A DNA stretch of 64,000 nt, taken from NCBI GenBank assembly GCA_965279315.1, contig OZ257145.1:1485536-1549535 (forward strand), read 5' to 3'. The notes below the pieces were generated by a model. It was not told the DNA's origin. It saw only the letters and a program-made list of their open reading frames with translations, and searched no databases. A program made the translations under genes and the position numbers. Source of the stretch: Alphaproteobacteria bacterium. GTDB taxonomy: Bacteria; Pseudomonadota; Alphaproteobacteria; Micavibrionales; UBA2020. Shown one piece after another: positions 10,863-46,675 of this stretch (position 1 is the stretch's first letter; the number at the start of each line of letters is the position of its first letter).

Positions 10863-13745
10863 TTATGCCGCCTCGGAATATGCCTCGATAGGCGGGCAGG
10901 CGCAGACAAGGTTGCGGTCGCCTGCCGCATGGTCGATGCGGTTGACGGGCGGCCAGTATTTATCACCGATCAGGTGCGCCGCCGGGAATGCGCCGTCGTG
11001 GCGGGAATAGGGGCGTTCCCACTTGTCGGCGGTCAGGTCACCCAGCGTATGCGGGGCGAGCTGCAGGGGGTTGTTGCCCTGCGGCCATATGCCTTTTTCG
11101 ACTTTCTCGATTTCCATGCGGATGACGGTCAGTGCCTCGATGAAGCGGTCCAGCTCCGCCTTGCTCTCGGATTCCGTCGGCTCGATCATCAGCGTGCCGG
11201 GGACGGGGAAAGACATGGTGGGCGCGTGGAAGCCGAAATCCATCAGGCGTTTGGCGATATCGTCGACGCTGATATTCGCGGAGGTTTTCAGCGGGCGCGT
11301 GTCGAGAATGCATTCATGCGCCACATAGCCGTTCTTGCCCTTGTAGAGCGTGACGTAATGCTTTTCCAGTTTCTTGGCGATGTAGTTGGCGTTCAGGATC
11401 GCCACCTGCGTTGCGCGCTTCAGCCCTTCCGTGCCCATCAGCGTGATATAAACCCACGAAATCGGCAGGATCGATGCCGAACCGTAGGGCGCAGCGGATA
11501 CAGGGCCAATCGCGTCTTCGCCGCCCACGCCGCCGACCAGCGGATGGCCGGGAAGGAAGGGAGCAAGGTGTTCGCCAACGCCGATCGGGCCCATGCCGGG
11601 ACCGCCGCCGCCATGCGGAATGCAGAAGGTCTTGTGCAGGTTCATGTGCATGACGTCCGCGCCGAACTTGCCGGGGCAGGCGAGGCCGACCAGCGCGTTG
11701 AAATTCGCGCCGTCCATGTAGACCTGTCCGCCGTTGTCGTGGATGATCTTGCAGATTTCGCGGATCTCTTCCTCGAACACGCCATGCGTCGATGGATAGG
11801 TCACCATCAGCGCGGCAAGCTTGTCCTTGTGCTGCTCCGCTTTCGCGCGCAGGTCGGTCAAATCGACGTTGCCATTTTCGTCGCAGGCGGTGATGACGAC
11901 CTCCATACCCGCCATCACGGCAGTTGCGGGGTTGGTGCCATGCGCGGAAGACGGGATCAGGCAGATATTGCGGTGCGACTGGCCTTTCGATTCATGATAG
12001 GCGCGGATGACCAGCAGGCCGGAATATTCGCCTTGGCTACCCGCGTTCGGCTGCAGCGTCACGGCGGCAAAGCCGGTCAGCGTGCAAAGCTTCGCTTCCA
12101 GATCTTTCAGCATCAGTTTGTAACCCTGCGCCTGATCGAGCGGCGCGAAGGGATGCATGTTGCCGAATTCGGGCCAGGTGACGGGGATCATTTCGGCCGT
12201 CGCGTTCAGCTTCATCGTGCAGGACCCGAGCGGGATCATGGAACGGTTGAGCGCGATGTCTTTCTGTTCCAGATGGCGGAGGTAGCGCAGCATTTCGGTT
12301 TCGGAACGGTATTGGTGGAAGGTCGGGTGCTGCAGGTATTCAGATGTGCGTTTCAGCGATTGCGGAATGGCATCCTGCACGCCCGCATCCAGTGCCTCGA
12401 CCGAAAAACCAAGCGCGCCCTTGCCGGAGAATACCTGCCACAGGCGGAAGACCTCATCGCGGGTGGAGCGTTCATCCAGCGACACGCCGATGCGCCCGTC
12501 GCCGAAATCGCGCAGGTTGATTTCCTTTGCCGCCGCGCGGTTCAGGATATCCTGCGCATGGCTGCCGGTATCGACCGTCACGGTGTCAAAGAAGCTGGCA
12601 TTGGTGGAGCTGAAACCAAGCTTGCGCAACCCTTCCGCGAAAATCGCGGCAAGGCGGTGCGTGCGGGTCGCAATCGTTTTCAGGCCTTCGGGGCCGTGAT
12701 ACACGGCATAGAAGGCCGCGATGTTCGCCAGCAGCACCTGCGCCGTGCAGATGTTCGACGTCGCCTTTTCGCGGCGGATATGCTGTTCGCGCGTTTGCAG
12801 GGCCAGCCGATAGGCTGCTTTCCCCTTTGAATCGACCGACACGCCGACGATGCGGCCGGGGATGGAACGTTTATAGGCATCCTGCGCGGCAAAGAATGCG
12901 GCATGGGGGCCGCCGTAACCCAGCGGCACGCCGAAGCGCTGCGCCGATCCGAACACGATATCCGCGCCCCATTCGCCGGGCGGTTTCAGCAGCGTCAACG
13001 CCAGCAGGTCGGTCGCAACGGCAACCGCGATATTTTTTGATTTCGCCTTCGCCGCAAGATCGCCGTAATCAACGACCGCGCCCGATGTGCCGGGATATTG
13101 CAGCAGGATGGCGAAACCGTCTTTTTCAATCAGGTCGCCGGCCTTGCCCACGACAACTTCGATGCCCAGCGGTTTCGCGCGCGTTTCCACAACCGCAATC
13201 GTTTGCGGGTGGCAGTCATCGGCGACAAGGAACACGTTGCTGGTGGACGAACCAACACGTTTCGCAAGCGTCATGGCTTCGGCGGCGGAGGTTGCTTCAT
13301 CCAGCATCGATGCGTTGGCGAGCGGCATGCCCGTCAAATCCATCGTGACCTGCTGGAAATTGATCATCGCTTCCAGCCGGCCTTGGCTGATTTCGGGCTG
13401 GTAAGGCGTATAGGCGGTGTACCAGCCGGGGTTTTGCAGCACGTTGCGCAAAATCACGTTCGGCGTGATGGTGTCGTAATAGCCCGCGCCGATCAGGGAG
13501 CGGTAGACCTTGTTCTGCTTCGCCATGCTTTCCAAAAGCGCCAGCGCATCGTGTTCCGTCATCGGCTCGCCGGTGGCGGGCGCCGATTTTTCGCGGATGG
13601 ATGCGGGCACGGCCTTGTTCGTCAGGTCGTCGAGGCTCGTCGCGCCGACGGTGCGCAGCATCGCGGCGATATCGGATTCAGAAGGCCCGATATGGCGGCG
13701 GATGAAATCGGTGCGTTGTTCAAGGTCCTGTATCGTCTGCGGCAT
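10863..13745 (-). CDS. gcvP: Glycine dehydrogenase (decarboxylating), single-chain P protein
   Basis: 960 aa, full-length GcvP-like sequence (FIRRHIGPS.., [11 protein letters not shown].., [19 protein letters not shown]-Lys region). ATG 13745 is chosen because ATG 13772 would overlap gcvH by 23 nt. Confidence 0.95.
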
Positions 13746-13749
13746 GCGC

Positions 13750-14124
13750 TTAAAGTCCTTTAATGTAGTCATTATACGCGGCTTCGTCTTTCAGGCCGGC
13801 GAGGTCGTTTTCGTTGGCGATCTTCACCTTGAAGAACCATGCCTTGCCCAGCGGGTCCGTGTTGACCAGCGCAGGGTCGCCCGAGAGCGCGGCGTTGGTT
13901 TCAACGACTTCGCCCGAAACGGGGGAATACAGTTCCGACGCCGATTTCACGGATTCAACCACGCCCGCCTGACCGCCCTTGGTCAGCGTCGCGCCGATTT
14001 TCGGCAGTTCGACATAGACGACATCGCCCAGCGCCTTTTGCGCGAAATCGGTGACGCCGACGGTGCCGACGCCGTTTTCGATGCGGATATATTCATGGTC
14101 TTCGCTGAACAGGATCTTGGTCAT
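13750..14124 (-). CDS. gcvH: Glycine cleavage system H protein
   Basis: 124 aa; lipoyl-lysine context [20 protein letters not shown]. Confidence 0.95.
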
Positions 14125-15299: not shown

Positions 15300-15475
15300 C
15301 CCCGCTCTGTCTTCTTTGCCTTAGAGATTCCGCATCGTTTACAGATGCTTGCTCCTTTGGCGCGGCTGAGCCGCTTTCCAGATTGCGAAGTCGCCGCGCG
15401 GTCCTTTTGCCTGAGAGTTTTCCGGGGTGATTGCTCCTTCGGCGCCGGTCTTTCAACCGGTCTCTCCCGCGTGGC
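15300..15475 (-). promoter_or_regulatory. Tandem glycine riboswitch (two aptamers) in the gcvT leader
   Basis: Minus-strand read: GGGAGAGACC..GGCGCCGAAGGAGCAA..CTCTCAGGCAAAAGGAC, then TCTGGAAAGCGG..CCGCGCCAAAGGAGCAA..CTCTAAGGCAAAGAAGAC. This matches the conserved cores of both glycine aptamers. Confidence 0.85.
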
Positions 15476-15552
15476 GGTCGCTTTGTTCGATTGACACTAA
15501 TGTCTCTTGCCCTAAAGTCAACTAAAGGAACGAAGAGGGTAGATAAAACGAC

Positions 15553-18328: not shown

Positions 18329-21081
18329 TATTGATCCTTCTTGAAAACGAAGCGTGAATAGAACCAGCTGAGCGCCAGCAAGCTGAGGCCGAGGCCCATG
18401 AACGAAAACACGCGGTAAAGCCCCGTCAGCTCGTCGACGTCATAGAGGAACACCTTGCCGACCGTCACGATCATGACGCCCAGCGACGCGATGCGCAGCG
18501 CCTTGTTCTGCTTGAGCGTGCCAAGGAACAGCAGGCCCGCGCCCAGCAGAAGCCAGACGGCGGAATAGGTATACACTTCCGCGTTTTCCGTCGCCCCCTC
18601 CATCAGGAAGCGGCCGTGATAGAACTGGCGCACCTGCAGCGTGACGAAGATGAACAAAAGCGTCAGCGACAGCCCGCCCGTCAGGCTGCGCGGCAGCGTC
18701 GCCATGCGCAGGCTGGGCTTTTCCTCCAGCCACAGCCACGCGACCGGCAGCGCATAGGGCAGCCACAGCCAGTTCAGCAGCGGCGTCGCGCCCACATCCT
18801 GCGAGCGGCTCCAGAGCGGGTTGGAAATGAACAGGTCGAAATAGAAGACGCGGAACATCGCCATCGCGAACAGGAACGAGCCCGCCCACAGCAGCGCGCG
18901 GCGGCTGTAAAGCCGTCCGGTGTAAACCACCAGCAGCGCCGCCGCGAAGAAGATGTTCGTGATGATGCCGCGTTCCATGAAGCCGGCCTTGCGGAACAGC
19001 ACATCGCCCGGCACCTTGAACACATGGCGGGCGAGGTAGTAGAGCATCAGCGCGCCCAGCGCCACCATCGTCATTTCAAACAGCTCGACCAGTTTGTCAT
19101 CCCCGCGCAGGCGCAGGAAAAACGCAGCCGCGCCGATCAGCACCATCGGGATGCCCAGCTGGAACACCGGCTGGTCGGCAAGCGGCGGCAGGCCGTGCCA
19201 CGGCGACCATTCGACGCCCGTCAGGCTGTTGGCGGTCACGCTGCCCAGCAGCAGAAGCTGCGGCAGGATCAGCAGCAGGAATACGCCGAACAGGATCGCC
19301 GCGATCCGGCGCAGCGCCTTGATGTCGATCTTCCACGCCACCCAGCACACGGCCAATGTTTCAGCGGCGAAGGCGACCGCCATCCAGTCCTGATGCACCT
19401 CGATCACCAGGGCAATCGATGCAAAAGCGGTGGTCATCAGGCTGAACAGCGCCAGCAGGCGGTCGCGCAGTTTTTCGTCGCCCGCAAAATTGCGGAACAC
19501 GTCGCCCGTCAGCCATGCAAAGCCGAGTGCCAGCAGCACCGCAATCGCCGACCACACATGCAGCACATCGCCGGAAATGATGTTCAGCAGCGGATAGATT
19601 TCCTTGCCGATCGTGGCATAGCCGACCCCGTAGAAACCGAGCGAGGCTGCGGACAGCACGCCCGCCATCGTCAGCGACGGCCAGCGACGCAAGAGCCAGA
19701 ATGTCGGCAGGGTATAAACGATGGCAAGCCCCAGCTCGACCATCGCCATTTCCGCGTCCGCCGTGTGCCGCCACATCAGCAGCATCAGCAGGCTGGTGCC
19801 CAGCGACAGGTATGGCACGTATTTGAACTGCGCGGGACGGAAGAACGCCATGGCGATGCCGCCCAGCGCCAGCAAGCCGAACATGCCCCATTCCAGCAGC
19901 CCGTAATCGCAGCGCATGGTGACAAAAGCCATCAACGCGACGCCGGCTGCGGCTGTGAACACGTTCAGCGTGCCGATGCTCGCGCGGTCCTTGCCGCCGA
20001 GTTTGGTGTCTTCCTGCGCCGACGGCACCATGATGACGCCGCTGACCGCGAGGATGAACAAGCCCATGACCAATCCGTCATCGGCGCTGAAATTCCCGCT
20101 GAAATTCCAGACGAGTATCCAGCCGAATGCCAGCACCGCCATCGGCACCGACAATGCCCACCAGCCCAGTTTGCGGAACGCCGTGAAGAGGCCGGCGACA
20201 AGGCAGAACAAATAGAAGAACAGCATGGGCGCGGACGGATGGTCTGTCGTGATCAGCGCAGGCGTGATGAAGCCGCCCAGCATCCCCAGCACCGCAACCG
20301 GCATGCCATGGCGCACCGACAGCACGACGGCAAGCGCGGTCGTCGCCGCCATGCCGATGAAACCCACCATCGGCGGGAAGAAATGATACATCTGCGTCGC
20401 GGCATAGATGGTCGCATACAGCGCTGCGATGCCCGCACCCGCCAGTGACATCGCAATGCGCGCGCCATCGGCCATGGTCGGGTTTTTCTCGCGGATATAG
20501 CGTGCGCCGCCGATCAGCAATGCTGCGAAGACAAAGCCCAGCACGATGCGGACTTCTTCGGTCAGCAAACCCTGCTCGATCGAATATTTCACAAGGTAGA
20601 AACCGGCCAGCGCGAGCGAGATGCCGCCAATCCAGACGGGCAGGCGTTTGCCGAACTGGAATTCGAAGCCGCTGCCCTGCGTCGATTTATCGGCAGCATC
20701 GGTTTTCTGCTGCCGCACCATGCTGGCGGCGGCGCGCGACTCTTGCTGTTCGGCGCGGATCTTTTCCTGTTCGCGTTCGAACGCGACGCGGATTTCGTCA
20801 GGCGGGGTGTAGGCGGGAATGCCTGCCGTCAGCAGCGACGACGGCGGAATGGCGCTGGCGGGCGGCAGCGGCGATGCGGGCGGAATACCGCCCGGCGTCA
20901 GCGGCATGACCTCGACTGGCGCGGCATCAGCGGTGCTGGAGGCGGTGCTGGAAAGGGGACGGGGCGGCAGGGGCGCGCGGTCGATACGGGTGCGCAGCTC
21001 GGTCACGTTATCTTCAAGGGCGCGGAAACGGCCCCACAGGAAGAACAGGAAGACGACGACGCCAAGTACAACTATTTCCAT
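18328..21081 (-). CDS. Large polytopic membrane protein, DUF2339-like
   Basis: 917 aa. N-terminal TM, then helix (FRALEDNVTELRTRIDR), then a Pro-rich linker, then >20 hydrophobic segments. Architecture is typical of DUF2339 (recalled). Confidence 0.6.
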   Translation of the reverse strand: MEIVVLGVVVFLFFLWGRFRALEDNVTELRTRIDRAPLPPRPLSSTASSTADAAPVEVMPLTPGGIPPASPLPPASAIPPSSLLTAGIPAYTPPDEIRVAFEREQEKIRAEQQESRAAASMVRQQKTDAADKSTQGSGFEFQFGKRLPVWIGGISLALAGFYLVKYSIEQGLLTEEVRIVLGFVFAALLIGGARYIREKNPTMADGARIAMSLAGAGIAALYATIYAATQMYHFFPPMVGFIGMAATTALAVVLSVRHGMPVAVLGMLGGFITPALITTDHPSAPMLFFYLFCLVAGLFTAFRKLGWWALSVPMAVLAFGWILVWNFSGNFSADDGLVMGLFILAVSGVIMVPSAQEDTKLGGKDRASIGTLNVFTAAAGVALMAFVTMRCDYGLLEWGMFGLLALGGIAMAFFRPAQFKYVPYLSLGTSLLMLLMWRHTADAEMAMVELGLAIVYTLPTFWLLRRWPSLTMAGVLSAASLGFYGVGYATIGKEIYPLLNIISGDVLHVWSAIAVLLALGFAWLTGDVFRNFAGDEKLRDRLLALFSLMTTAFASIALVIEVHQDWMAVAFAAETLAVCWVAWKIDIKALRRIAAILFGVFLLLILPQLLLLGSVTANSLTGVEWSPWHGLPPLADQPVFQLGIPMVLIGAAAFFLRLRGDDKLVELFEMTMVALGALMLYYLARHVFKVPGDVLFRKAGFMERGIITNIFFAAALLVVYTGRLYSRRALLWAGSFLFAMAMFRVFYFDLFISNPLWSRSQDVGATPLLNWLWLPYALPVAWLWLEEKPSLRMATLPRSLTGGLSLTLLFIFVTLQVRQFYHGRFLMEGATENAEVYTYSAVWLLLGAGLLFLGTLKQNKALRIASLGVMIVTVGKVFLYDVDELTGLYRVFSFMGLGLSLLALSWFYSRFVFKKDQ

Positions 21082-21109
21082 CGTCTTCCTGTGCTTTCTT
21101 TATCTCTGG

Positions 21110-22894
21110 TTAGGGTTTGGGCGGTTTAGCGGCGGGCGGGGCTTTCGCCTTTGCCGCTTCCTTTGCGGCTTCCTCCTGCTTCAGCGCTTTTTTGTCGGGC
21201 TTGCCGATCATTGTTTTCGGCAGGCTGTCGCGGGTTTCGAACTGCTTGGGCATTTCATACGGCGCGAGTTTATCACGCAAGAACGCGGTCATTGTCTTGT
21301 CGTCGACCTTTTCCGCATCCGCCTTGTACACGATGAACGCCTTCACGGTTTCGCCGCGGTATTCATCCTTCACGCCCAGCACGATCACTTCCGACACGTT
21401 CGGGTGCTGCATGATCGCCTCTTCCACCTTGCGGGGGAACACTTTCAGGCCGGATGCGTTGATCATGTCCTTGATGCGGTCGACGATGAAGATATAGCCT
21501 TCTTCATCCATGTAACCGACGTCGCCGGTGTGGAAATAGCCGTCTTTGTCCATCACGTTGGCGGTTTCATCGGCGCGGTTCCAGTAACCCTGCATCACCT
21601 GCGGGCCGCGCAGGCAGATTTCGCCTTCCATGCGGATGGGGCAGGCCTGGTCGGGGAATTCCAGGTTGGCGATTTTCACTTCCGTTTTCGGAAGCGGCAT
21701 GCCGATGGAATTCAGTTTCTTTTCGCCATGCACGGGGTTGGCAACCGCGATGGGCGAGGTCTCGGAAAGGCCATAGCCTTCTGTCAGCGCCGTGCCGGTC
21801 AGTTTCGTCCAGCGTTGCTGCGTCGTTTCCGGCAGGCCCGCGCCGCCCGACAAAACGATTTTCAGCGACGACAGGTCGTATTTGCTGACATCGGGATGGT
21901 CCATCAGCGCCTTGAACAGCGTCGGCACGCCCGCAAACATCGTGGGCTTTTCCGCGTTGATCGTCTTCAGCGTCGTTTTCGCGTCGAACTGCGGCAGCAT
22001 GACGATTTCCGCGCCCAGCTTGATCGACAGGTTCATCTGCACGGTCATCGAGAACACGTGGAAGAACGGCAGCACGACCAGCATCTTCTCCTGCTTGTTC
22101 GTGCCCTTGCCGGGGCTGCCGCTGGTGAACCAGAAATCGGCCTGGTTCAGGTTGGCGGACAGGTTGGCATGGGTCAGCATTGCCGCTTTCGGAATGCCCG
22201 TCGTGCCGCCCGTATATTGCAGCACGGCAAGGTCGGTCGGTTTCACATCGACCGGCGCGGGATTGCCCTTGTTTTTCATCAGTTTCGCGAAGGGGATATG
22301 CTTGTCGTCGCTCTTCACTTTGACCGTATCAGCCTTGCCGAACCAGCCCTTCACCGTGTTCAGGACTTTATAGGCAAAGCCCTTCACGCCCGGCAGCGCA
22401 TCGGCAAGATCCGCCACGATGACTTTTTTCAGGCAGGTGGTGCCGTCCAGCATTTTATCGATCTTCGGCTGGATTTTGGTGACGGCGAGCGACACCATCA
22501 CATCGGTCTTGCTGTCGTTGATCTGGCCGCGCATTTCCTGCTCGGCATAGAGCGGGTTGAAATTGACGACCGTCGCACCCGCCTTCAGCGCGCCATAATA
22601 GGCGATCACATAAAAGGGCGTGTTCGGCAGGCACAGGCCCACATGGGATCCCTTGCCGAAACCGGCATCCTGCAATCCTTTGGCGAATTTATCGACTTCC
22701 TGACCCAGTTCTTTGTACGTCAGCGTCTTGCCCATGAAATTCAGCGCGGGCTTGTCGGCGTTTTTCTTGACCGAGTCCTCGAACATCTGCGTCATCGTGG
22801 AAACGGGAACTTCCATGTCCCAGTCGATGTCCACCGGATACTTGTTGCTCCAGGGATACTTGCCTTGCGGCTGGGGGGAGGCGGCTTCGGTCAT
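21110..22894 (-). CDS. fadD: Long-chain-fatty-acid--CoA ligase (AMP-binding family) with a Lys/Ala/Pro C-terminal tail
   Basis: 594 aa. AMP-binding motif LQYTGGTTGIPKAAMLTHANL, later GYGLSETSP and YFHTGDVGYMDEEGY. Tail ..KQEEAAKEAAKAKAPPAAKPPKP. Confidence 0.9.
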   Translation of the reverse strand: MTEAASPQPQGKYPWSNKYPVDIDWDMEVPVSTMTQMFEDSVKKNADKPALNFMGKTLTYKELGQEVDKFAKGLQDAGFGKGSHVGLCLPNTPFYVIAYYGALKAGATVVNFNPLYAEQEMRGQINDSKTDVMVSLAVTKIQPKIDKMLDGTTCLKKVIVADLADALPGVKGFAYKVLNTVKGWFGKADTVKVKSDDKHIPFAKLMKNKGNPAPVDVKPTDLAVLQYTGGTTGIPKAAMLTHANLSANLNQADFWFTSGSPGKGTNKQEKMLVVLPFFHVFSMTVQMNLSIKLGAEIVMLPQFDAKTTLKTINAEKPTMFAGVPTLFKALMDHPDVSKYDLSSLKIVLSGGAGLPETTQQRWTKLTGTALTEGYGLSETSPIAVANPVHGEKKLNSIGMPLPKTEVKIANLEFPDQACPIRMEGEICLRGPQVMQGYWNRADETANVMDKDGYFHTGDVGYMDEEGYIFIVDRIKDMINASGLKVFPRKVEEAIMQHPNVSEVIVLGVKDEYRGETVKAFIVYKADAEKVDDKTMTAFLRDKLAPYEMPKQFETRDSLPKTMIGKPDKKALKQEEAAKEAAKAKAPPAAKPPKP

Positions 22895-23378
22895 TTTTCA
22901 CTCTTCGAAAAGAAGTTGATAAAGGCCGCAATTCCTGTCGCAGGAACTGCAAGCATTCACACCCACACCGCCGTCTTTTTTTGTTAAATCAAATCTGATT
23001 TTGGGAAACCGTAACAGCCAGAAAACGCCTTGTAAAGCGCGCTTGTTTTGTCATATGCGGCAGTTTTCATAGCATGAAAAACACGCGCAAAAATTGATGC
23101 GTTGCAGCACCTTTTTTCGTTTTCTGAATGTTGCGGGAAGCCCTGTCGCTCACACTTCTTGAGCCTGCCTAAATTGTCTCAACTTTGACCTCAAGATTCA
23201 ACATAATATTTGGTGACAACGCGTTTGTGACAGGTCTTTCGCAAGCAACCGGAGCGGCTTGCGCGGAAAAAGATTTTTTCAAAACGATGCGGCGCATAAC
23301 GCGAATGTGACGGTTGTGACAGGGTGAAAATCGGTACCCGTGAATTTGAATTTTTGGATTCGCGATTCCCACCCCTCT

Positions 23379-34410: not shown

Positions 34411-34995
34411 ATGGCCACAAAAACAAAACTCCTCGTTTTCGCCGGTGCGACGCGCGAAGGTTCCTTCAACAAGAAACTCGCGCGCCTCGCCGCGAAAGCG
34501 GCCGGGGAAGCGGGCGCGGAAGTGACGCTGGTTGATCTCAAAGATTACCCGATGCCGCTTTATGACGGCGACGATGAATCCGCATCCGGCCTGCCGGAGA
34601 AGGCACTGGCGTTCAAGAAGCTGGTGAAGGAATCGGACGGTTTCATCATCGCGTCGCCCGAATACAACAGCGGTTATTCCGGCGTGCTGAAAAACACGAT
34701 TGACTGGGCCAGCCGCCCGTCGGAGGCAGGCGAAGGTTCCGCCGCCGCATTCGCAGGCAAATATGCGGGCATCATGGCGGCATCGCCGGGCGCACTGGGC
34801 GGCTTGCGCGGGCTGTATGCGTTGCGCGAACTGCTGATGAATATCAGCGTCACCGTGCTGCCGCGTATGCAGGCGGTGGGCGGCGCGGGTGCGGCGTTCA
34901 ATGACGACGGCACGCTGAAAGATGAAAAATTCAGCAAAGGCGTCGCGGGCGTCGCGCAAGACCTCGTGAAACTGCTGCAAAAAACGAAAGCGTAA
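34411..34995 (+). CDS. NAD(P)H-dependent FMN reductase-family oxidoreductase
   Basis: 194 aa. LLVFAGATREGSFNKKLA and ASPEYNSGYSGVLKNTIDW motifs. Confidence 0.85.
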   Translation: MATKTKLLVFAGATREGSFNKKLARLAAKAAGEAGAEVTLVDLKDYPMPLYDGDDESASGLPEKALAFKKLVKESDGFIIASPEYNSGYSGVLKNTIDWASRPSEAGEGSAAAFAGKYAGIMAASPGALGGLRGLYALRELLMNISVTVLPRMQAVGGAGAAFNDDGTLKDEKFSKGVAGVAQDLVKLLQKTKA

Positions 34996-35006
34996 GCGGG
35001 GATAAC

Positions 35007-36332
35007 TTGAACACCAGACCCACGCTGCTGGAGGGCGATCCGGGCGCGCATATCAGGCGCCTGACGCTTCCGCTTGCCTGGGGCATGCTGGCGATGACCA
35101 GTTTTTCGGTGTTCGATGCGTGGTTTATCTCGCGCCTTGGCACGCAATACCTGGCTGCGCTTGGGTTCACCATACCTGTCCTCATGTTTTTCATGGGCAT
35201 CGTGTTCGGCACATCGGTCGGCACGACATCGGTGATCGCGCGCGTCTATGGCGAGGGTGATTTTGAAAAAGTACGCCGTATGGCGACCGATGCGCTCAGC
35301 CTCACTTTCGTCAGCGTCATTGTGGCTGCGATTGCGGGCATGCTGTTCATCGATCCCATCTTCCGCATCATGGGCGCGACCGATGATTTGATGCCGCTGA
35401 TCCACCGTTACATGATGATCTGGTATTGCGGGTTGCCGTTCCTTGGCCTGCTGATGGTCGGGAATGCCTGCATCCGCGCGACGGGGGACACGCATTTCGT
35501 GTCGAAAATGATGACGCTGCTGGCTGTCAGCAACATCATCCTCGACCCGTTCTTTATTTTCGGCTGGGGGCCGTTCCCGGAATGGAAACTGGCGGGCGCG
35601 GCGGCGACGCTGGTCTGTTCCTATTACCTGACCTGCTGCGTGTCGATGTATTTCCTGATCTTTAAAAAGAAAATCCTCACGCATCCGATTATCCATCCCG
35701 GCCTGCTGAAATCATGGGGCAAGATTTTGCATGTGGCGGTGCCGTCGATCGTCAGCAACCAGATCGCGCCCATTTCCGCCGCCATCATCACATGGATGGC
35801 GGCGCAGTTCGGCAAGGAAGCGGTCGCGGCTTTGGGCGTCGCAACGCGTATCGAGAGCATGGCGACGCTGCTGTTCTATTCCATGGGTGCGGCGATTGCC
35901 ATTTTCACGGGCCAGAATTACGGCGCGGGCAATTACGGCCGCATCCAGCAGGCGACCGCCACGGGCGCGAAATATTCGATGGTCTGGGGCCTGGGCATTG
36001 CGGCGGGTTTGTGGATTTTCGCCTACCAGATCCCGACATTCTTTGATTCAAATGCGCAAGTCATCGCCTATACCGCGCAATACCTGCACTGGGTGCCGAT
36101 CAGCTACGGCGCGCTGGGCGTGCTGGTGGTGTCGAACGCCGCGCTGAACGCGATGGGCAAGCCGCTGCCCGCGACGACGCTCATCCTGCTCAAGACCTTC
36201 GTCATCTATGTGCCGCTCGCCTACCTGCTGCAGGCGAAGATGGGTTTCAGCGGCATCCTGGCCGCGCTGCTCGTCACCAACTTTATCCTCGGCATCGTGT
36301 CGTATTTCTGGAACAAAAAAATCGCATCCTGA
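35007..36332 (+). CDS. MATE-family efflux transporter
   Basis: 441 aa, 12 hydrophobic segments, MATE-like N-terminus (LTLPLAWGMLAMTSFSVFDAWFISRLG). TTG start. Confidence 0.85.
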   Translation: MNTRPTLLEGDPGAHIRRLTLPLAWGMLAMTSFSVFDAWFISRLGTQYLAALGFTIPVLMFFMGIVFGTSVGTTSVIARVYGEGDFEKVRRMATDALSLTFVSVIVAAIAGMLFIDPIFRIMGATDDLMPLIHRYMMIWYCGLPFLGLLMVGNACIRATGDTHFVSKMMTLLAVSNIILDPFFIFGWGPFPEWKLAGAAATLVCSYYLTCCVSMYFLIFKKKILTHPIIHPGLLKSWGKILHVAVPSIVSNQIAPISAAIITWMAAQFGKEAVAALGVATRIESMATLLFYSMGAAIAIFTGQNYGAGNYGRIQQATATGAKYSMVWGLGIAAGLWIFAYQIPTFFDSNAQVIAYTAQYLHWVPISYGALGVLVVSNAALNAMGKPLPATTLILLKTFVIYVPLAYLLQAKMGFSGILAALLVTNFILGIVSYFWNKKIAS

Positions 36333-39652: not shown

Positions 39653-40276
39653 TTAAAATTCCTTTCGGTTGCCTTTGTCATTTTTTTGCGCGAGCCAGAC
39701 GGTGCGGCCGCCGCAATCGGTATCTGTCAGGTTTAGGACAATAACGCTAAATCCGTTGTTTTCAAGCAGCGTTTTATATTCGTCCACGGAAAGGCTGGCA
39801 TGGTGGATGTCATGCCCCTCCATGCTGCCATAGATTTCGCCATCTTCCGTTCCGGTATTGAACAGCAGCACTGCGCCATCGGCGGCATGCGCGGCGAAAG
39901 TGGCGAACATGGCGCGCTGGTCGTCGCGGGTCAGGTGGAAAAAACTGTCCCAAGCGAGGATGGCATCGTATTTTGCGCCCAAAGCGGTTTTGCGGATATC
40001 GCCCACCTGCCAGTCATGGCCGGGGAAGCGTGATTGCGCGAGTTCAATCATGCGCGGCGCGATATCGATGCCGGCCACCTTGAAACCGTTCGCGATAAAA
40101 AACGCCGCCATCGGCTCCGCACTGCCGCAGCCGAGGTCCAGCAGGCGGCCTTCGGGCTTTGCGAGCTTCAGCACATGGTCGAGGTATTTCCTCTCGATCA
40201 GCGTCTTGTTGCGCGCATTGTCGAACCAGTCGGCGATCTGCTGGTATTGCGCGGCGACTTCGGTATTGCGGGTCAT
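39653..40276 (-). CDS. Class I SAM-dependent methyltransferase
   Basis: 207 aa. Motif I LLDLGCGSAE, post-I GIDIAPRM. Confidence 0.8.
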   Translation of the reverse strand: MTRNTEVAAQYQQIADWFDNARNKTLIERKYLDHVLKLAKPEGRLLDLGCGSAEPMAAFFIANGFKVAGIDIAPRMIELAQSRFPGHDWQVGDIRKTALGAKYDAILAWDSFFHLTRDDQRAMFATFAAHAADGAVLLFNTGTEDGEIYGSMEGHDIHHASLSVDEYKTLLENNGFSVIVLNLTDTDCGGRTVWLAQKNDKGNRKEF

Positions 40277-40698
40277 TCTTCGATCATGCCGCTGCCCGCC
40301 GAAATGGCAAGGAAGGCGTCGCGGTCGATGTTCACATGGGGGCCGAGGTCATAGGTGTCGAGATCCTCGATCGGCACCCAGACGAATTCCGAATGTTCCG
40401 GCGTCAGCTTGACGTTTTCGCCGAGCGGGCGGCAGAGATAGGCGAGGTTGAGCAGCGGCTGCCCCTCGCGCTTGCCGGTGCGGGCGTTAAAAATCTGCAT
40501 CACGTCGATTTTCAGGCCGGTTTCTTCCTTGTATTCGCGGGCGAGCGCCACTTCGGGCGCTTCGCCATGCTCGACGCCGCCGCCGCAGAATTCCCAGCCG
40601 ATAAATTCCGATCCGGGTGCGGGCGCGCGTTTCAGCAGCAATACCTGACCTTCGTCGTTCATCAATACGCCAAGGGCGCGGACATTGAATTGAGCCAT
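40273..40698 (-). CDS. NUDIX hydrolase
   Basis: 141 aa. Complete Nudix box GGGVEHGEAPEVALAREYKEETGL. Overlaps the methyltransferase start by 4 nt. Confidence 0.85.
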   Translation of the reverse strand: MAQFNVRALGVLMNDEGQVLLLKRAPAPGSEFIGWEFCGGGVEHGEAPEVALAREYKEETGLKIDVMQIFNARTGKREGQPLLNLAYLCRPLGENVKLTPEHSEFVWVPIEDLDTYDLGPHVNIDRDAFLAISAGSGMIEE

Positions 40699-40712
40699 CT
40701 TAATATTCCTTC

Positions 40713-40755
40713 AAAAAGATTTCCGGCCGGGGCTTTTAAGGGCTCCGGCCGGAAA
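40713..40755 (-). terminator. Terminator/attenuator-like hairpin between the DHS-like and NUDIX genes
   Basis: TTTCCGGCCGG / CCGGCCGGAAA stem, followed by T5 on the minus strand, 16 nt after the DHS-like stop. Confidence 0.45.
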
Positions 40756-40770
40756 ATTTCATTCACGCGC

Positions 40771-41838
40771 TTACTTGAACAGCTTGTTCCAGTTGCGGCG
40801 CGGGCGTTTTTTCCAGTAGCCGCGATGGTAAGCGTCGGATGCCAGCAGCGGCATGACCGAGCCTGCTTCCGCGAACACCATCTGTTCCAGTGCAACGTCC
40901 ACTTTGCCCCAGCTGCACGCTTCCTTCAGCGTGGAGGAGGAGCAGGCGCCGTCGCGCACGTCGGCGATGGTGATCTGGACCGCGTATTTGTGCATATCGA
41001 CATCCTTGTGGCCGAGGATCTCAGCGCAGACAACGGTGTCCTGCGTGAAGTTCTTGGGCACGCCGCCGCCGATCATCAGCAGGCCGGTGGTGCCGGCCGC
41101 GATTTTCACGTCGGTCAGTTCGCGGAAATCCGCAACCGCGTCGATGCACATATAGTTCTTCGGGTTTTTCTTCTGGTGCAGCACAAGGCCGAAACCGGCG
41201 GAAGAATCCACGAATGCCGGGCAGAAGATCGGCACGCCGTGCTCATAGCACGCCGCGATCAGCGAGTTTTTCTTCTTCGCTTTTTTCACCAGGTACTTGC
41301 CCATTTCCCAGATGAATTCGCGCGACGAATAGGGGCGGCGCTCGAGGCCTTGCGCGATTTCGAAGATCGTGTGGTCAACGGCCTGCAGGTCTTCTTCATC
41401 GATGTATGTGTCGTAAATGCGGTCGATATAGAGGTCGCGCAGCTCGCGGTCATCAACCTGGCTATCTGCACGGTAATGCTTGAAGCCGAGCGCTTCAAAG
41501 AAGTCCATGTCCACGATGGATGCGCCGGTTGCGACGATCACGTCGACCATGTTGCTCTTGACCATTTCCGTGTACAGGTCCATGCAGCCGCCGGCCGAGG
41601 TGGAGCCCGCGAGCGTCAGGATGGATGTCGCGCCCTTGTCCTGCAGCATGGTGTTGAAAATGTCGGTCGCGCGCGATAGGTCGCGCGAGGTGAAGGACAT
41701 TTTGCCCATGCCGTCGATGATCGGGCGTGCATCGAATTTCTTGATGTCGATATGCTCGATCGGGGTATTCAGCAACGCCGCTTTGCGGTTGCTTTTCGGG
41801 TGGGGCTTGGCTTTCACGGCTTTCAGGTTGCTTTTCAT
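40771..41838 (-). CDS. Deoxyhypusine synthase-family protein (bacterial DHS-like, candidate homospermidine-type synthase)
   Basis: 355 aa, DHS-like throughout (ILTLAGSTSAGG, DVIVATGASIVDMD, MIGGGVPKNF, VQITIADVRDGACSSSTLKEACSWGK). Confidence 0.85.
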   Translation of the reverse strand: MKSNLKAVKAKPHPKSNRKAALLNTPIEHIDIKKFDARPIIDGMGKMSFTSRDLSRATDIFNTMLQDKGATSILTLAGSTSAGGCMDLYTEMVKSNMVDVIVATGASIVDMDFFEALGFKHYRADSQVDDRELRDLYIDRIYDTYIDEEDLQAVDHTIFEIAQGLERRPYSSREFIWEMGKYLVKKAKKKNSLIAACYEHGVPIFCPAFVDSSAGFGLVLHQKKNPKNYMCIDAVADFRELTDVKIAAGTTGLLMIGGGVPKNFTQDTVVCAEILGHKDVDMHKYAVQITIADVRDGACSSSTLKEACSWGKVDVALEQMVFAEAGSVMPLLASDAYHRGYWKKRPRRNWNKLFK

Positions 41839-41940
41839 GTTCGTAGTCCTTTTTTATCAATCTGCCCTGCGCGTTTCAGGCCGCTCCTGTTGCAAGGAGT
41901 GGCCCGAAATGGGTTTTACGCGGTCAATTTGTGGCGAAAA

Positions 41941-43140
41941 TTATCCCGTCACGCAGAGTTCGTTTGAATCCGTCGTTTCCAGCGCGTCATCGTAGAGCGT
42001 GACCAGCGGCGGGGCCTTGACGGACACGACTTCATGGGCGGAAAAGCCGTTGAAGTCGGTACGCATGGTGTTCCCATAGGCGCCGAGCTGGCCGATCTCG
42101 ATGTAATCCCCTTCCCGGACGTCTTCCGGCAGGTAAAAGGGGCCAGGCATATAATCAATGCTGTCGCAGGTGGGCCCGTAGAAACGGAAACCCTTGTGCG
42201 GCGCACTGGTGCCTCCCGGCGTCGGACGGATGAGACGAACCGGGTAACGGAAACCCAGGTGGCCTGCGTCGAACAGGCTGCCATAGGTTCCATCATTAAT
42301 GTAAAGGACATCGTCCTTGCGAAGTTCAACCTGCACGACGACCGAGGCGCTTTCCGCGACAAGCGCGCGGCCGGGCTCGCACCAGAACTCGTAGCGGTCC
42401 GGGTGGGGCAGGGTGTTGAAGCCCTGGTCGATGGCGGTTTTGTAGTCGGCAAGCGCAGGGGGCGCCATGTCGGGATAGATCGACGGGAAGCCGCCGCCGA
42501 TATCGATGACATCGACGCGGGTGCGCGGGATTGCGCGCAGGATGCCACCCACGATGTTCAGTGCCGCCACATATGCGGCAGGGTCCATGGTTTGCGAACC
42601 CACATGGAAGCAGATGCCCAGCTTGCGCGACAGCTTGCGCGCCATTTTCAGGATCTCCGGCGCCTTTTCAGGCAGGCAGCCGAACTTGCCCGCGAGCGGC
42701 AGCTCCGACGAGGTATTAGGGACGGCGAGGCGCAGGTACAGGCCGAGGTCTTTCGACTTGCCGGTGCAGGCGACGATCTTTTCCAGCTCCTCGACCGAGT
42801 CAAAGGAGAAGTCGCGGACGCCGAAATCGAAATACGCCTGTTCGATGGCATGGCGGCTTTTCACCGGATGCATGAACGCGATGTGGGAGCCGGGCGCAAT
42901 CTCGTTCACCAGCTGGATTTCGGGGATGGAGGCCGCGTCAAAGTGCTTGATGCCCGCATCGCGCAAACCGGCCAGCACGTATTTGGCAGGGTTCGCCTTG
43001 ACGGCGTACAGCACATGGCCGGGGAAATTCTCGAGGAACCACTTGGCAGAGGTTTCAAGCGAAGCCGGACGGAAACAGGTAACGGGAATATTGGGACGTC
43101 GCTGGCGGACTACGTCTTCGGGGCCTTCGTATTTTTCCAT
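41941..43140 (-). CDS. Type III PLP-dependent ornithine/lysine decarboxylase (Orn/DAP/Arg decarboxylase family 2)
   Basis: 399 aa. PLP-Lys motif VLYAVKANP, DIGGGFP, CEPGRALV, GPTCDSID. Confidence 0.85.
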   Translation of the reverse strand: MEKYEGPEDVVRQRRPNIPVTCFRPASLETSAKWFLENFPGHVLYAVKANPAKYVLAGLRDAGIKHFDAASIPEIQLVNEIAPGSHIAFMHPVKSRHAIEQAYFDFGVRDFSFDSVEELEKIVACTGKSKDLGLYLRLAVPNTSSELPLAGKFGCLPEKAPEILKMARKLSRKLGICFHVGSQTMDPAAYVAALNIVGGILRAIPRTRVDVIDIGGGFPSIYPDMAPPALADYKTAIDQGFNTLPHPDRYEFWCEPGRALVAESASVVVQVELRKDDVLYINDGTYGSLFDAGHLGFRYPVRLIRPTPGGTSAPHKGFRFYGPTCDSIDYMPGPFYLPEDVREGDYIEIGQLGAYGNTMRTDFNGFSAHEVVSVKAPPLVTLYDDALETTDSNELCVTG

Positions 43141-43296
43141 TCCATGAAACCCTCCTGGGGGCTTTCATGAGATAACCGCACGCGAATCGTTCGCTGCCGT
43201 GCCCTCATAATTAACGTTATAGGTTGATTCGATTCAATGTAAAGAATTTTTGAAATATCAGCGGCTTTGGGGCTTTCACATCGTGTTACAAAATCT

Positions 43297-44874
43297 TCAC
43301 GATGCCGGTTTTGGCTGCATCGGGCGCGGTAGTGGAACCATGATCGTGCGCGGGATGTTCTTGAGCGCGGGCTCGACCGCCGCGATGTCGACGCCGTGGC
43401 GCGCATTGGCCGCAACATAGTCGATTTTCCGCACATCGGTGATAAAAGTCTGCTGCAGCTTGGTCATCAGCACGGGCAGGGCGGCGTTGTCGGGCTGCAG
43501 CTTGATGCCGTCCATCAGCGCGGTCTGCAGCGCGCCATAGGCGCCGATCATGGTCTGGGGCGTGATCTTGCCATAGAGGGCGAAAGCGCGCTCCTGCAGC
43601 ATGGCGCTGGCGTTCCAGGCGCGCACCCTGGCCAGCCCCGCCTTTTCCTTGTCGGTCAGCGGGGCGTCGCCCTGCGGGCCGCGCTTGGCGGCCTGTTCGG
43701 CGGCAGTGACGGTGCGGCGGAATTCCTGCGCGCGGATGAAATCGGGGTCGGCACCGGCCAAAATCTTCAGGGTGCGGAGCTGCGCAGGCGTCTTCGCATC
43801 CTCCAGCATGACGGTATAGCCCACGATGCTGCCGGTCAGTTCCTTGGCGTCCATGATTTTAAAGTAAAACGCCTGCGCCTGGCTGTCGTTCATGGCGCGG
43901 AAGGCGGGCAGGCCCATTTTCACAATCTGGCTTTTCATCTCCGCCAGCACGGGCGGGGAGAAGTGGAGCGGGTCGCCCACCAGCTTTTTCCGCCAGTCCG
44001 ACACCGCGTCGATGGCGGTCAGGTCGGCCTTGCCCGCGCGGATCAGGTCGCCGATCCCGCCCACATCCGCCAGCGCCTCCTTGTTGTACCGCAGGGCGAT
44101 AAATTCCCGCACGGTCGCGCTGTTGCGGGCGGCGTTGGGCTTTTTCAGTTCCTTGTCCATCGCGTCCTCGTCAAACCCCTGCATCGGGTAGCGGGAGTCG
44201 AGGCAATGCCAGGATTCATGCGTGTTCACAAAGGCGATTTTCTGCTGGAGCGTCATGCCCGGCATGGTGAAGGGCAGGGCATGGCCGGAGGACGGGACGA
44301 TCACGCAAGCCTCGCCCGCCGCACCCGTCTGGTTGAGGAAGGCGGCAGGGTTCTGGGTTTTCACGAGGCCGAAGGCGAATTTGTGGAAGTTCGCCATGTT
44401 CCCCGCCACGATGCGTGCACGGCTGGGCTCGAACTCCACATTTTGCTCCCCCAGCATCATCTGGACGATGGCAACGGCGGGCAGCCCCAGCGCGGTGCCG
44501 GCATCGAAACGGGCGGGGTCGAGCACCACGGCGCGGTCATGCAGCCCGTGCATGTGCTGGAGGCTCAAGGTCAGGCGTTCGCTGAAGACGTTCAGGTCGC
44601 GGGAATAGGTGTCGCCGGTCTGGATTTTGGATGCCATGAATTCGGTGCGGGCGGCGTCGATCAGGGCGATCCGCACCTCCATGCTGTATTCCAGCGCGCG
44701 CAGGTCGGGCGGGGCGGTTTCGGTCACGGCAGCCGTATTGCCGTTCGGGGCGGCAGGCGCGCCGGTTTGCGCGACGGCAGGCGTCATCCCGCCCAGCAAG
44801 ATGGTCGTCAGCGCGGTCGATGCCGCGAATTTTCGCCAGACGCCCGACAGCGTGCCTTTGCGGGTGAGGCTCAT
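43297..44874 (-). CDS. Exported hypothetical protein with an HExxH motif, paralogue A
   Basis: 525 aa. Signal-like ..ASTALTTILLGGMTPAVAQT. ACVIVPSSGHAL, FVNTHESWHCLD, YNKEALADVGGIGDLIR. Aligns end-to-end with the upstream gene. Confidence 0.6.
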   Translation of the reverse strand: MSLTRKGTLSGVWRKFAASTALTTILLGGMTPAVAQTGAPAAPNGNTAAVTETAPPDLRALEYSMEVRIALIDAARTEFMASKIQTGDTYSRDLNVFSERLTLSLQHMHGLHDRAVVLDPARFDAGTALGLPAVAIVQMMLGEQNVEFEPSRARIVAGNMANFHKFAFGLVKTQNPAAFLNQTGAAGEACVIVPSSGHALPFTMPGMTLQQKIAFVNTHESWHCLDSRYPMQGFDEDAMDKELKKPNAARNSATVREFIALRYNKEALADVGGIGDLIRAGKADLTAIDAVSDWRKKLVGDPLHFSPPVLAEMKSQIVKMGLPAFRAMNDSQAQAFYFKIMDAKELTGSIVGYTVMLEDAKTPAQLRTLKILAGADPDFIRAQEFRRTVTAAEQAAKRGPQGDAPLTDKEKAGLARVRAWNASAMLQERAFALYGKITPQTMIGAYGALQTALMDGIKLQPDNAALPVLMTKLQQTFITDVRKIDYVAANARHGVDIAAVEPALKNIPRTIMVPLPRPMQPKPAS

Positions 44875-46466
44875 AATCCCCTTCCTTTCGCGCGGAAGGG
44901 TTTCAGGGCGGGGTCGGCCGCCACGATATCGACGCCGCGTTTCAGGTTGGCCTCGACGTAATCGGTGTCCTGCACCCGCCAGACGAAACTTTCCTGCAGC
45001 TTGGTCATCTGCGCGGCATAAAGCGGGTTGCGGGGGTCTGATCTGGTATGGGCATGCAATTCATCCTGCAGTGCGCCATAGGCCGCAGCGAGCGTCACAG
45101 GCGTGATGCGGCCGCTATCCTTGAACGCGCGGTCCTCCAGCAGTTGCGCGGCGTTCCAGCTGCGCAACGCGCCTGCCAGTTTGATCTCGGCGGATGATAG
45201 CGGCCCTGCGCCGGGGTCGGCCGGCTTTTGCCAGTAATACTGGAAGAAATCGATGGCCTTGGCGGCTTCGGGATCGGTCTTGGCGGCCTCCAGCCATTGC
45301 AGGCGTTCGGGCACGGTGCCTTTTTCCAGCTTCAGGTTGATCTGGAGGCTGCGGGCGCTCATGCCGTACTGGTCGGTCACGTCGAAATACAGCTGCTTTG
45401 CCGCCGCATCGTCGAGACGGTGGAAGGCGTCGATGCCCATCTCGTCAATCTTCGCCTTGAAGCCGTGCAGCACGGGCGCGCTCAGGTGCTGGATGTCGTT
45501 GGGATAGCGCATCCGCCACGCCACGATTTTGTCGATCAGGCCGGTGTCATAGCCATCCTGCCGGATCATGTCGCCGATTGCGCCCACATCGGCCACCGCC
45601 TCTTTCCGGTACTCCATCGCGAAAACGCCGAGCGCGGTCAGGTTGGCGATCTTGGACATCAGTGTGCCTTGCGGCACCGCCGCCAGTTTTTTGGGATCGA
45701 AGCTGCGCAGCGTGTATTTATCGTCAAGGCAGTGCCAGCCTTCATGGCGGTTGGTGAAATTCACCTGTTCGCGCGCGTTCAGGCCGCGAATATCGATCGT
45801 CAGCGCGTGGTCGGATGACGGCACGATGACGCAGGCGGCGGGGTGCGTGCGGCTGGTGTTCATCATGGCGAAGGGGTCTTGGGAAAAGGTCTGCACGCCA
45901 TACCGGAAGGCATAGGGCGCGGCGGCCTTGCCCGCAACCGTCTCTGCCATCTCGCCCGTCGGCGTCAGTTTTTGTTCGGTCAGCAGTAAGCGCACGGCCT
46001 GCGGCGCACTAAAGCCGAGCGCCATCGCCACATCGAACTTGCCGGGGTCGATCACCAGCACGCGGTTGTGGATATTGGCGCGGTCGGATTTCAGGAACCG
46101 CGTCAGCCGGTCCTGCAGCCCGTCCAGTTCCTGCGAATAGCTGCCGCGATTGTTCAGTTTCAGCACCTCGCGCCGCGCCTGCTGCATCAGGGCGGCATTG
46201 ATGCGGGCGCGCCGTGCCTCTTCCTTGGCCGGCAATATAACAATGTCGTCCATATCTATTGTCCGGGTGGCGTCATCGCGCGGCGGGGGATCGGCGCTGC
46301 CGGGTGCGCCGGCGTCCTCGATCTTCTGCGTATGATCTGGCTTCGGCACGCTGGTGCAGCCTGCGGCCGCAAGGCTTGCGCCCAAGGCGGCACGGCGCAC
46401 GAAAACCCACCATGACGATGTCAGGCTGGTGGTCTTTTTCAGCGATGTGACGTCTGTTTTCGCCAT
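44871..46466 (-). CDS. Lipoprotein-like hypothetical protein with an HExxH motif, paralogue B
   Basis: 531 aa from MAKTDVTSLKK. ..GASLAAAGC lipobox-like. ACVIVPSSDHAL, FTNRHEGWHCLD, YRKEAVADVGAIGDMIR. Its stop overlaps the paralogue A start (ATGA). Confidence 0.6.
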   Translation of the reverse strand: MAKTDVTSLKKTTSLTSSWWVFVRRAALGASLAAAGCTSVPKPDHTQKIEDAGAPGSADPPPRDDATRTIDMDDIVILPAKEEARRARINAALMQQARREVLKLNNRGSYSQELDGLQDRLTRFLKSDRANIHNRVLVIDPGKFDVAMALGFSAPQAVRLLLTEQKLTPTGEMAETVAGKAAAPYAFRYGVQTFSQDPFAMMNTSRTHPAACVIVPSSDHALTIDIRGLNAREQVNFTNRHEGWHCLDDKYTLRSFDPKKLAAVPQGTLMSKIANLTALGVFAMEYRKEAVADVGAIGDMIRQDGYDTGLIDKIVAWRMRYPNDIQHLSAPVLHGFKAKIDEMGIDAFHRLDDAAAKQLYFDVTDQYGMSARSLQINLKLEKGTVPERLQWLEAAKTDPEAAKAIDFFQYYWQKPADPGAGPLSSAEIKLAGALRSWNAAQLLEDRAFKDSGRITPVTLAAAYGALQDELHAHTRSDPRNPLYAAQMTKLQESFVWRVQDTDYVEANLKRGVDIVAADPALKPFRAKGRGL

Positions 46467-46675
46467 TACATCCGGTCGTTCAATAAAAAAGCGATTTATA
46501 ACCGCCTGAATCTCCAAGGGGAATCATCCGAGCCTATATTATACTATACATAATTAAGGATTCGTGTATTATGTCGAACGCTTGACCAAAAACATATTGA
46601 AAAATAACGATTTTTCAATAGGATGCAGCGCAACAAAACAACAATAACGACTCAAAACGATTCAGGGCGGAAAAT

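Follow-up and report, generated by a model that had tools for sequence, protein, structure and literature searches.

Tandem exported paralogues with a conserved HExxH and ExxAD signature beside typA: candidate metallohydrolases of an undescribed family in Micavibrio-like bacteria

A coupled pair of paralogues and its relatives

The window analysed here is a stretch of 64,000 nucleotides from an alphaproteobacterium of the order Micavibrionales (assembly GCA_965279315.1, contig OZ257145.1, positions 1,485,536 to 1,549,535). On its minus strand, next to typA, lie two overlapping genes, B (44871..46466) and A (43297..44874), whose products of 531 and 525 amino acids (aa) we regard as candidate exported zinc-dependent metallohydrolases. 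An earlier note, made from the letters of the sequence, had described them as an ATGA-overlapping pair of paralogues that align along their whole length. Both open reading frames (ORFs) are indeed present, and BLASTP aligns 456 residues of A and B with 36% identity, 53% positives and an E value of 3e-87. B is the lipoprotein-type paralogue and falls in a B-type clade (587 bits against the family profile), while A is the signal-peptide-type paralogue and falls in an A-type clade. The longest ORF of gene B extends to a TTG at 46517, and the ATG at 46466 agrees with the N-termini of homologues. The start/stop overlap (44871..44874) was read directly from the junction GGA AGG GGA TTA TGA GCC, in which the ATG of A (44874-44872) overlaps the TGA of B (44873-44871) and a purine-rich, Shine-Dalgarno-like run, AGGGGA, stands immediately 5' of the ATG of A, an arrangement consistent with translational coupling. 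Overlaps of 4 nt (ATGA, GTGA or TTGA) recur within the arrays of related genes at L005, L007, L008, L009, L029 and L031 (related loci and family members carry L and P numbers hereafter), and coupling consequently appears to be a conserved feature rather than an accident of the window.

The sequence blocks listed in the earlier note as common to the two proteins (DRAVVLDP, ACVIVPSS, NxHExWHCLD, KEAxADVGxIGD, HxSxPVL, MTKLQ and DYVxAN) were all found and are kept in homologues. Orthologues of A share 73-87% identity with it, and the nearest relatives of B (L011/L031, L005 and L007) share 51-53%. Relatives are few: a word-indexed search of 5.8 billion proteins with A returned only 24, each unnamed or annotated as hypothetical and several of them from Micavibrio or Alphaproteobacteria metagenome-assembled genomes (MAGs), and a second homologue search with a wide profile recovered the same 24 proteins and nothing further. 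At E <= 1e-3, a profile search covering the full set of 1.84 billion cluster representatives recovered 202 proteins, and 150 of these reached E <= 1e-30. We collected 168 members, and the alignment of 134 diverse ones reaches approximately 18% identity to A.

Neither A nor B nor 76 other diverse members (78 proteins altogether) matched any Pfam-A family at E <= 1, and searches of NCBIfam, PHROGs and PADLOC with A and B yielded no family; a lone PHROG match (E 0.005, 39 residues, unknown function) was disregarded. Searches of PDB sequences, whether with A alone or with profiles of 21 and 134 sequences, returned noise and no peptidase, the best rows being a quorum-sensing regulator (E 2.1) and RPA32 (E 0.29). 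The suggestion that this family is undescribed thus stands in every library searched: it is without a Pfam, NCBIfam or PDB representative. Judged by their sequences, A and B are two old paralogues of it.

The similarity and the motifs might, in principle, reflect chance or an annotation artefact such as spurious ORFs in GC-rich DNA, since the region has approximately 61-64% GC and its opposite strand contains long antisense ORFs. This explanation has to contend with the strength of the A/B alignment, with homologues in 31 fetched loci and 202 profile matches, with ratios of nonsynonymous to synonymous substitution (dN/dS) well under 1 and with confident AlphaFold models. The A/B alignment, the profile search of the cluster representatives and the dN/dS values refute spurious ORFs, and we give the artefact virtually no credence.

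Conserved residues and export signals

The earlier note had made its reading depend on the conservation of HExxH among homologues. The motif is present in 158 of the 168 members, the 10 exceptions being fragments of 133-275 aa, and is invariant in the 134-sequence alignment. In the numbering of A, H219, E220, H223, D270 and R295 are found in 134/134 sequences, E266 and H304 each in 133/134, G321 in 132/134 and A269 in 121/134. The family signature can be written as N217-x-H-E-x-W-H-C-L-D226, followed by E266-x-x-A-D270-x-G-x-x-G-D-x-I-R and then by W-R295-x5-D-x2-H304-x-S-x-P.

On the minus strand, the HExxH motif of A (H219-E220-S-W-H223) is encoded at 44206..44220, lies in a predicted helix (209-225) and would supply two zinc ligands and the general base. 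The corresponding motif of B, H241-E-G-W-H245 (45732..45746), aligns with it. The conserved Glu that had been noticed some 45 residues past HExxH is E266 of KEAxAD, 43 residues after H223; it belongs to the ExxAD motif of A (E266-A-L-A-D270, 44065..44079; predicted helix 253-279), which aligns with E289-A-V-A-D293 of B (45588..45602). In clan MA(E) peptidases such as thermolysin (NEAISD) and neprilysin (GENIAD), HExxH is followed by ExxxD on the next helix, the Glu being the third zinc ligand and the Asp orienting a His ligand. E266 and D270 are proposed to take these two roles. The downstream Glu had already been read as a gluzincin-type feature, a reading strengthened by its near-invariance and by its place in an ExxAD motif with an invariant Asp, as in the thermolysin/neprilysin-type arrangement. 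Further downstream, R295 and H304 (WRxxxxxDxxHxS, 43963..43992) are, from their conservation, candidate substrate-binding or transition-state residues. From this set of residues we infer metal binding and catalysis and, with less confidence, a peptide substrate.

HExxH, ExxAD and the R...H pair are retained in nearly every copy of every related-locus array. Consequently, the array copies look like active enzymes rather than decayed duplicates. A short divergent subfamily of 392-462 aa (L008 5171-6406, L029 7191-8411, L012 8488-9873 and L013 1-1176) carries HEFFHC(L/A)(H/D/N) in place of HExWHCLD, and ExxAD is unrecognisable in the expected range in 3 of its 4 members; these may be degenerate or re-purposed copies.

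Two cysteines accompany the active-site region, C190 in the strand ACVIVP and C224, the residue next after the second His of the motif (44203..44307, minus strand). Across the 134 members both are present in 83, only one in 7 and neither in 44. Although shared ancestry inflates these counts, such co-variation suggests a disulfide, and hence an oxidising extracytoplasmic location; it also lends independent support to the predicted contact between strand 189-193 and the active-site helix. The alternative that C190 acts as a metal ligand in the manner of peptide deformylase was rejected, the residue being absent in a third of the members and co-varying with C224.

A signal-like N-terminus, taken as 12 or more consecutive uncharged residues among the first 60, was detected in 132 of 149 N-terminally complete members. 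That of B (46356..46466, minus strand) comprises a basic n-region with RR (R24, R25), an uncharged h-region and a lipobox-like AAG-C37, ending in ...FVRRAALGASLAAAG-C37-TS, where ...SLAAAGC37 matches the lipobox pattern. P0013, P0016, P0022 and P0023, all B-type relatives, retain the lipobox Cys, aligned as TAGC or TTAC. In A (44770..44874, minus strand) a conserved GxLSxVWRKFA precedes a weakly hydrophobic h-region and an AVA-Q cleavage-like site (...TPAVA35-QT). The claim that the proteins are exported is borne out by these signal-like stretches, by the lipobox Cys of B-type members and by the co-varying Cys pair. Their cellular location is what we infer from such signals: the most likely reading is a lipoprotein with an acylated Cys37 for B and a soluble protein, either periplasmic or secreted, for A.

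A, B, P0015, P0020, P0063-P0067 and P0109 share a conserved n-region of unusual length, in which RR or RK comes directly before a weakly hydrophobic h-region (SVFRRFAL, AARRFAA, ARRIVL). Just before the h-region the basic pair is RR in 28 members and RK in 37, and 18 members satisfy a TatFind-like pattern; B, with RRAAL, fits it, and A has RKFAA. From these patterns, some members may be exported by the twin-arginine translocation (Tat) pathway, whose signals carry S/T-R-R-x-F-L-K ahead of an h-region of low hydrophobicity. A Tat-exported lipoprotein, if gene B indeed encodes one, would be uncommon.

The typA locus, its arrays and its control region

A scan of a genome collection found 24 loci in MAGs labelled Micavibrio, Alphaproteobacteria, Rhodospirillaceae or 'Bdellovibrionales', plus one Patescibacteria; wherever the sources name the organism, the carrier of the family is a Micavibrio-like bacterium. 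Approximately 27 fetched loci share one gene order: typA on the opposite strand, n family genes, ornithine decarboxylase (ODC), a deoxyhypusine-synthase-like gene (DHS), and NUDIX and/or methyltransferase or arginase genes, with n between 1 and 5. In two genomes, additional arrays flank typA on its other side.

Within arrays, members of 679-922 aa (L012 190-2955, L013 1261-3999, L008 1571-3619, L010 6296-8371 and L029 5063-7141) match segments of the profile (approximately positions 182-372) two or three times and carry one HExxH only; by sequence they look like internal partial duplications.

Distant members depart from the common order. P0155 (approximately 21% identical to A) belongs to a five-gene array beside typA without the polyamine genes (L033, lacking ODC and DHS), and two others are located elsewhere, one of them, P0120 (L032, 8001-9500), among relaxase, ArdA and helicase genes. 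Such neighbours suggest that, away from the typA locus, mobile elements carry some of the copies. Distant member P0153 (L025 4066-6731; L026 1973-4614) adjoins a SlipAM/TPR gene of the Slam type (surface-lipoprotein assembly) and a gene for a 422-aa protein of unknown function.

Gene A changes rapidly. Between the window and L001, its dN is 0.067, its dS 0.43 and its dN/dS 0.16, whereas ODC, DHS and NUDIX show dN of approximately 0.005-0.006 and dN/dS of approximately 0.03. The protein encoded by A thus evolves about ten times faster than its neighbours, as is often the case for exported or surface proteins. Its dN/dS is 0.26 against L002 and 0.30 against L027, and this purifying selection (0.16-0.30) indicates that gene A is functional.

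The earlier note had also raised the possibility of a heterodimer, and several features could be explained by an obligate complex in which a lipoprotein anchor and a soluble subunit need each other: the ATGA overlap promotes equimolar production, L005, L007 and L009 likewise have a B-type (lipobox) gene that overlaps a following A-type gene by 4 nt, and the two clades, apart in a rough neighbour-joining tree, are old, A and B being only 36% identical. Yet in L001-L004 and L027, the five closest relatives of A, an orthologue of A (76-87% identity) lies directly between typA and ODC without any B, although the flanking genes are 84-100% identical to those of the window (86-100%, mostly 98-100%, in L001). 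Conversely, L031 has a B-type gene followed by ODC and no A-type gene. Copy number per locus varies from 1 to 5, and both proteins hold the full set of catalytic residues, neither resembling a dead regulatory subunit. Because close relatives carry A without B, the heterodimer proposal is weakened, and an obligate complex now seems improbable. A and B probably act independently, possibly in different compartments.

The control region of the pair (46550..46620) contains a palindrome and sigma-70-like hexamers facing B. The palindrome, a perfect 11-nt inverted repeat TATTGAAAAAT-N4-ATTTTTCAATA at 46595-46620 in the 209-bp spacer between typA and B, overlaps sigma-70-like (-35-like) hexamers on both strands. 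Its core, TTGAAAAA-N6-TTTTTCAA, has a single occurrence in the window, where chance predicts 0.03, and 11 distinct related loci have it unchanged at the corresponding intergenic position (including L001 489-510, L002 9815-9836, L003 6389-6410, L005 8282-8303, L016 9781-9802, L029 3298-3319 and L031 282-303). Such a sequence may be an operator or a symmetric -35 pair of divergent promoters. B and A would be co-transcribed from a conserved promoter region beside typA and translationally coupled through ATGA, a proposal supported by the recurrence of the 4-nt overlaps and by the conservation of the palindrome and of the promoter-like region upstream.

Downstream of A, and also on the minus strand, lies a polyamine-type cluster (39653-43140) that comprises genes for a pyridoxal-phosphate-dependent ornithine/diaminopimelate decarboxylase (41941-43140), the deoxyhypusine-synthase-like protein (40771-41838), a NUDIX protein (40273-40698) and a methyltransferase (39653-40276); an arginase is present as well in some relatives. 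A functional link between the array and these genes was set aside as probably inherited synteny, L033 keeping its array beside typA without ODC or DHS. A 13-nt imperfect hairpin (CATGAAACCCTCC/GGGGGCTTTCATG) at 43143-43169 overlaps the Shine-Dalgarno sequence and the start codon of the decarboxylase gene. A speF-type leader was sought between A and ODC, where no Rfam match was obtained at E <= 1 and folding was no better than that of shuffled sequences (z-score 0.18).

Elsewhere in the window, a glycine riboswitch aptamer (15389-15479, minus strand, 75 bits) shares its strand and general region with the gene for the glycine-cleavage P-protein (10863-13772). Pfam has no match at E <= 1e-5 for two long ORFs, 34674-35696 (minus, 340 aa) and 20819-22987 (plus, 722 aa), the second of which overlaps in antisense with a DUF2339 gene and is possibly spurious.

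Predicted fold and likeness to known zincins

AlphaFold2 models were built with the family alignment for full-length A (mean per-residue confidence, pLDDT, 82.1; predicted template-modelling score, pTM, 0.79) and for its residues 56-330 (pLDDT 86.9, pTM 0.83). The predicted order comprises two long N-terminal helices, short helices, a four-strand meander (162-166, 169-173, 177-181 and 189-193, with an extra strand at 115-117), the HExxH helix 209-225, the long ExxAD helix 253-279 and an all-helical C-terminal half. The zincin-type placement of the HExxH helix after a beta-sheet is therefore present in the predicted secondary structure. The C-terminal half (residues 330-510) has no known counterpart.

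Taken together, the residues and the predicted topology lead us to propose, with a probability of roughly 60%, that A and B are exported zinc-dependent metallohydrolases of a new family; that they are peptidases we hold with lower confidence. Each protein would most likely be a zinc hydrolase of the thermolysin/neprilysin type. The metal would be held by three ligands, H219 and H223 from a single helix and E266 from the long helix that follows; E220 would serve to activate water and D270 to orient a His ligand, and R295 and H304 would take part in substrate binding or in transition-state stabilisation. After export, of B as a lipoprotein on Cys37 and of A as a soluble periplasmic or secreted protein, the C190-C224 disulfide would probably pin the strand preceding the active-site helix to that helix. 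The expected outcome is zinc-dependent hydrolysis outside the cytoplasm, probably of peptide bonds.

Several results weigh against this proposal. Foldseek found no match in the PDB (best E 0.36 with the full-length model and 0.59 with the catalytic domain; TM scores <= 0.26), and thus no solved zincin, and nothing in BFVD, although a typical zincin domain might be expected to yield at least a weak match. With hhalign, the family profile gave no relevant alignment with thermolysin; with neprilysin, it aligned over only 16 columns around HExxHxxD, which was not significant; and with a 29-sequence M13 alignment, it aligned over 58 columns, from the P-x-A/...IVP strand region to HExxHxxD, at P 0.025 and a probability of 1.9%. 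The PDB-sequence profile searches described above recovered no peptidase either. Moreover, by the figure given in PMC3650047, about half of HExxH occurrences lie outside known zincins, making HExxH alone a weak signal; the weight of the gluzincin case consequently rests on its invariance together with the accompanying ExxAD, Arg and His.

With no fold match, the active site could also be a convergent one, built on a new scaffold. The proteins could then be exported metal enzymes of a new fold that act on a non-peptide substrate, or metal-binding proteins that are not hydrolases, their gluzincin likeness being convergent. Besides the lack of any structural or profile link to a zincin and the helical C-terminal half without known counterpart, the position of the arrays directly upstream of the ODC, deoxyhypusine-synthase-like, NUDIX and arginase/methyltransferase cluster, on the same strand in approximately 27 loci, would fit this alternative; candidate substrates are amide bonds of prey or self cell wall, of lipids or of polyamine conjugates. 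However, HExxH combined with ExxAD on the next long helix and with an invariant Arg and His is specific, and both the order of these elements and the predicted secondary structure match gluzincins, while the polyamine link is not universal (the five-gene array of L033 has neither ODC nor DHS) and may be inherited gene order within one bacterial order. We therefore regard a convergent site on a new fold as unlikely, albeit a reading to be taken seriously.

Micavibrio is known as an obligate epibiotic predator (PMC6145908). Epibiotic predators fasten onto the prey surface. Still more tentatively, the array beside typA could be a fast-diversifying arsenal of new-fold exported metalloenzymes of such predators, with lipoprotein and soluble isoforms acting at the predator surface or delivered into prey and with turnover under predator-prey or environmental selection; a role in interactions with prey or environment is a doubtful extension of the data. 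If it were true, the proteins would represent either a new family at the MEROPS level or a convergent gluzincin-like site on an unrelated scaffold, and they would be candidates for attack on the prey envelope. A single hypervariable locus between highly conserved housekeeping genes offers a short candidate list of surface or secreted enzymes in a lineage whose prey attack is poorly understood. The locus is also a natural system for the study of tandem-array turnover, with its 1-5 copies, internal duplications and a dN about ten times that of neighbouring genes. Should the proteins prove active, exported metallohydrolases of a gluzincin-like kind would gain a new family, one whose predicted fold Foldseek is unable to place; should they be inactive or not peptidases, a structure would be worthwhile all the same, to show the invariant H-E-H-E-D-R-H set on its new scaffold.

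A and B match no named family such as M13 or M4, and gluzincin-like, a description drawn from motifs and predicted topology, is our working term for them. In anthrax lethal factor (M34), the M48/M56 'cowrins' and the angiotensin-converting enzyme (M2), too, a Glu lies tens of residues beyond the HExxH helix, on a helix of its own, with a spacing of approximately 45 in M34. Foldseek rows for these groups are at noise level (4pkv, E 7.0; 6ait_F, E 5.1; TM scores 0.13-0.18), and profiles give no support. Thermolysin (M4) differs from the family by a His-Glu spacing of 19 instead of 43 and by the lack of any Pfam, hhalign or Foldseek match between them. Both, however, are secreted, by prediction in the case of the family, and have HExxH together with Glu-x-x-x-Asp on a downstream helix, the glutamate helix of thermolysin (NEAISD). 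The predicted order in the family also agrees with that of the thermolysin type, namely backing helix, beta-sheet with a substrate-binding edge strand, active-site helix and glutamate helix (PMC9002140).

Neprilysin (M13, PF01431, clan MA(E)) was compared through its C-terminal sequence, HEITHGFD...GENIADNGG...HSPGNFR, which matches PDB 1dmt at 100%. The family matches neither PF01431 nor PF05649 and lacks the NAFY substrate-binding motif; its His-Glu spacing is 43 versus 58 in neprilysin, the order of Arg and His is reversed (R295 before H304, versus H711 before R717), its mature proteins have approximately 470 residues versus approximately 700, and Foldseek recovers no M13 structure. The likenesses nevertheless extend along the putative active site: HExWHCLD in the family parallels HEITHGFD (HExxHxxD), EALADVGG parallels ENIADNGG (ExxADxGG) on the downstream helix, and HFSPP parallels HSPGNFR further on, where a conserved His-(x)-Ser-Pro is accompanied by an invariant Arg. 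Both comprise exported or ecto-enzymes, by prediction in the case of the family, and both have a large helical domain beside the catalytic core.

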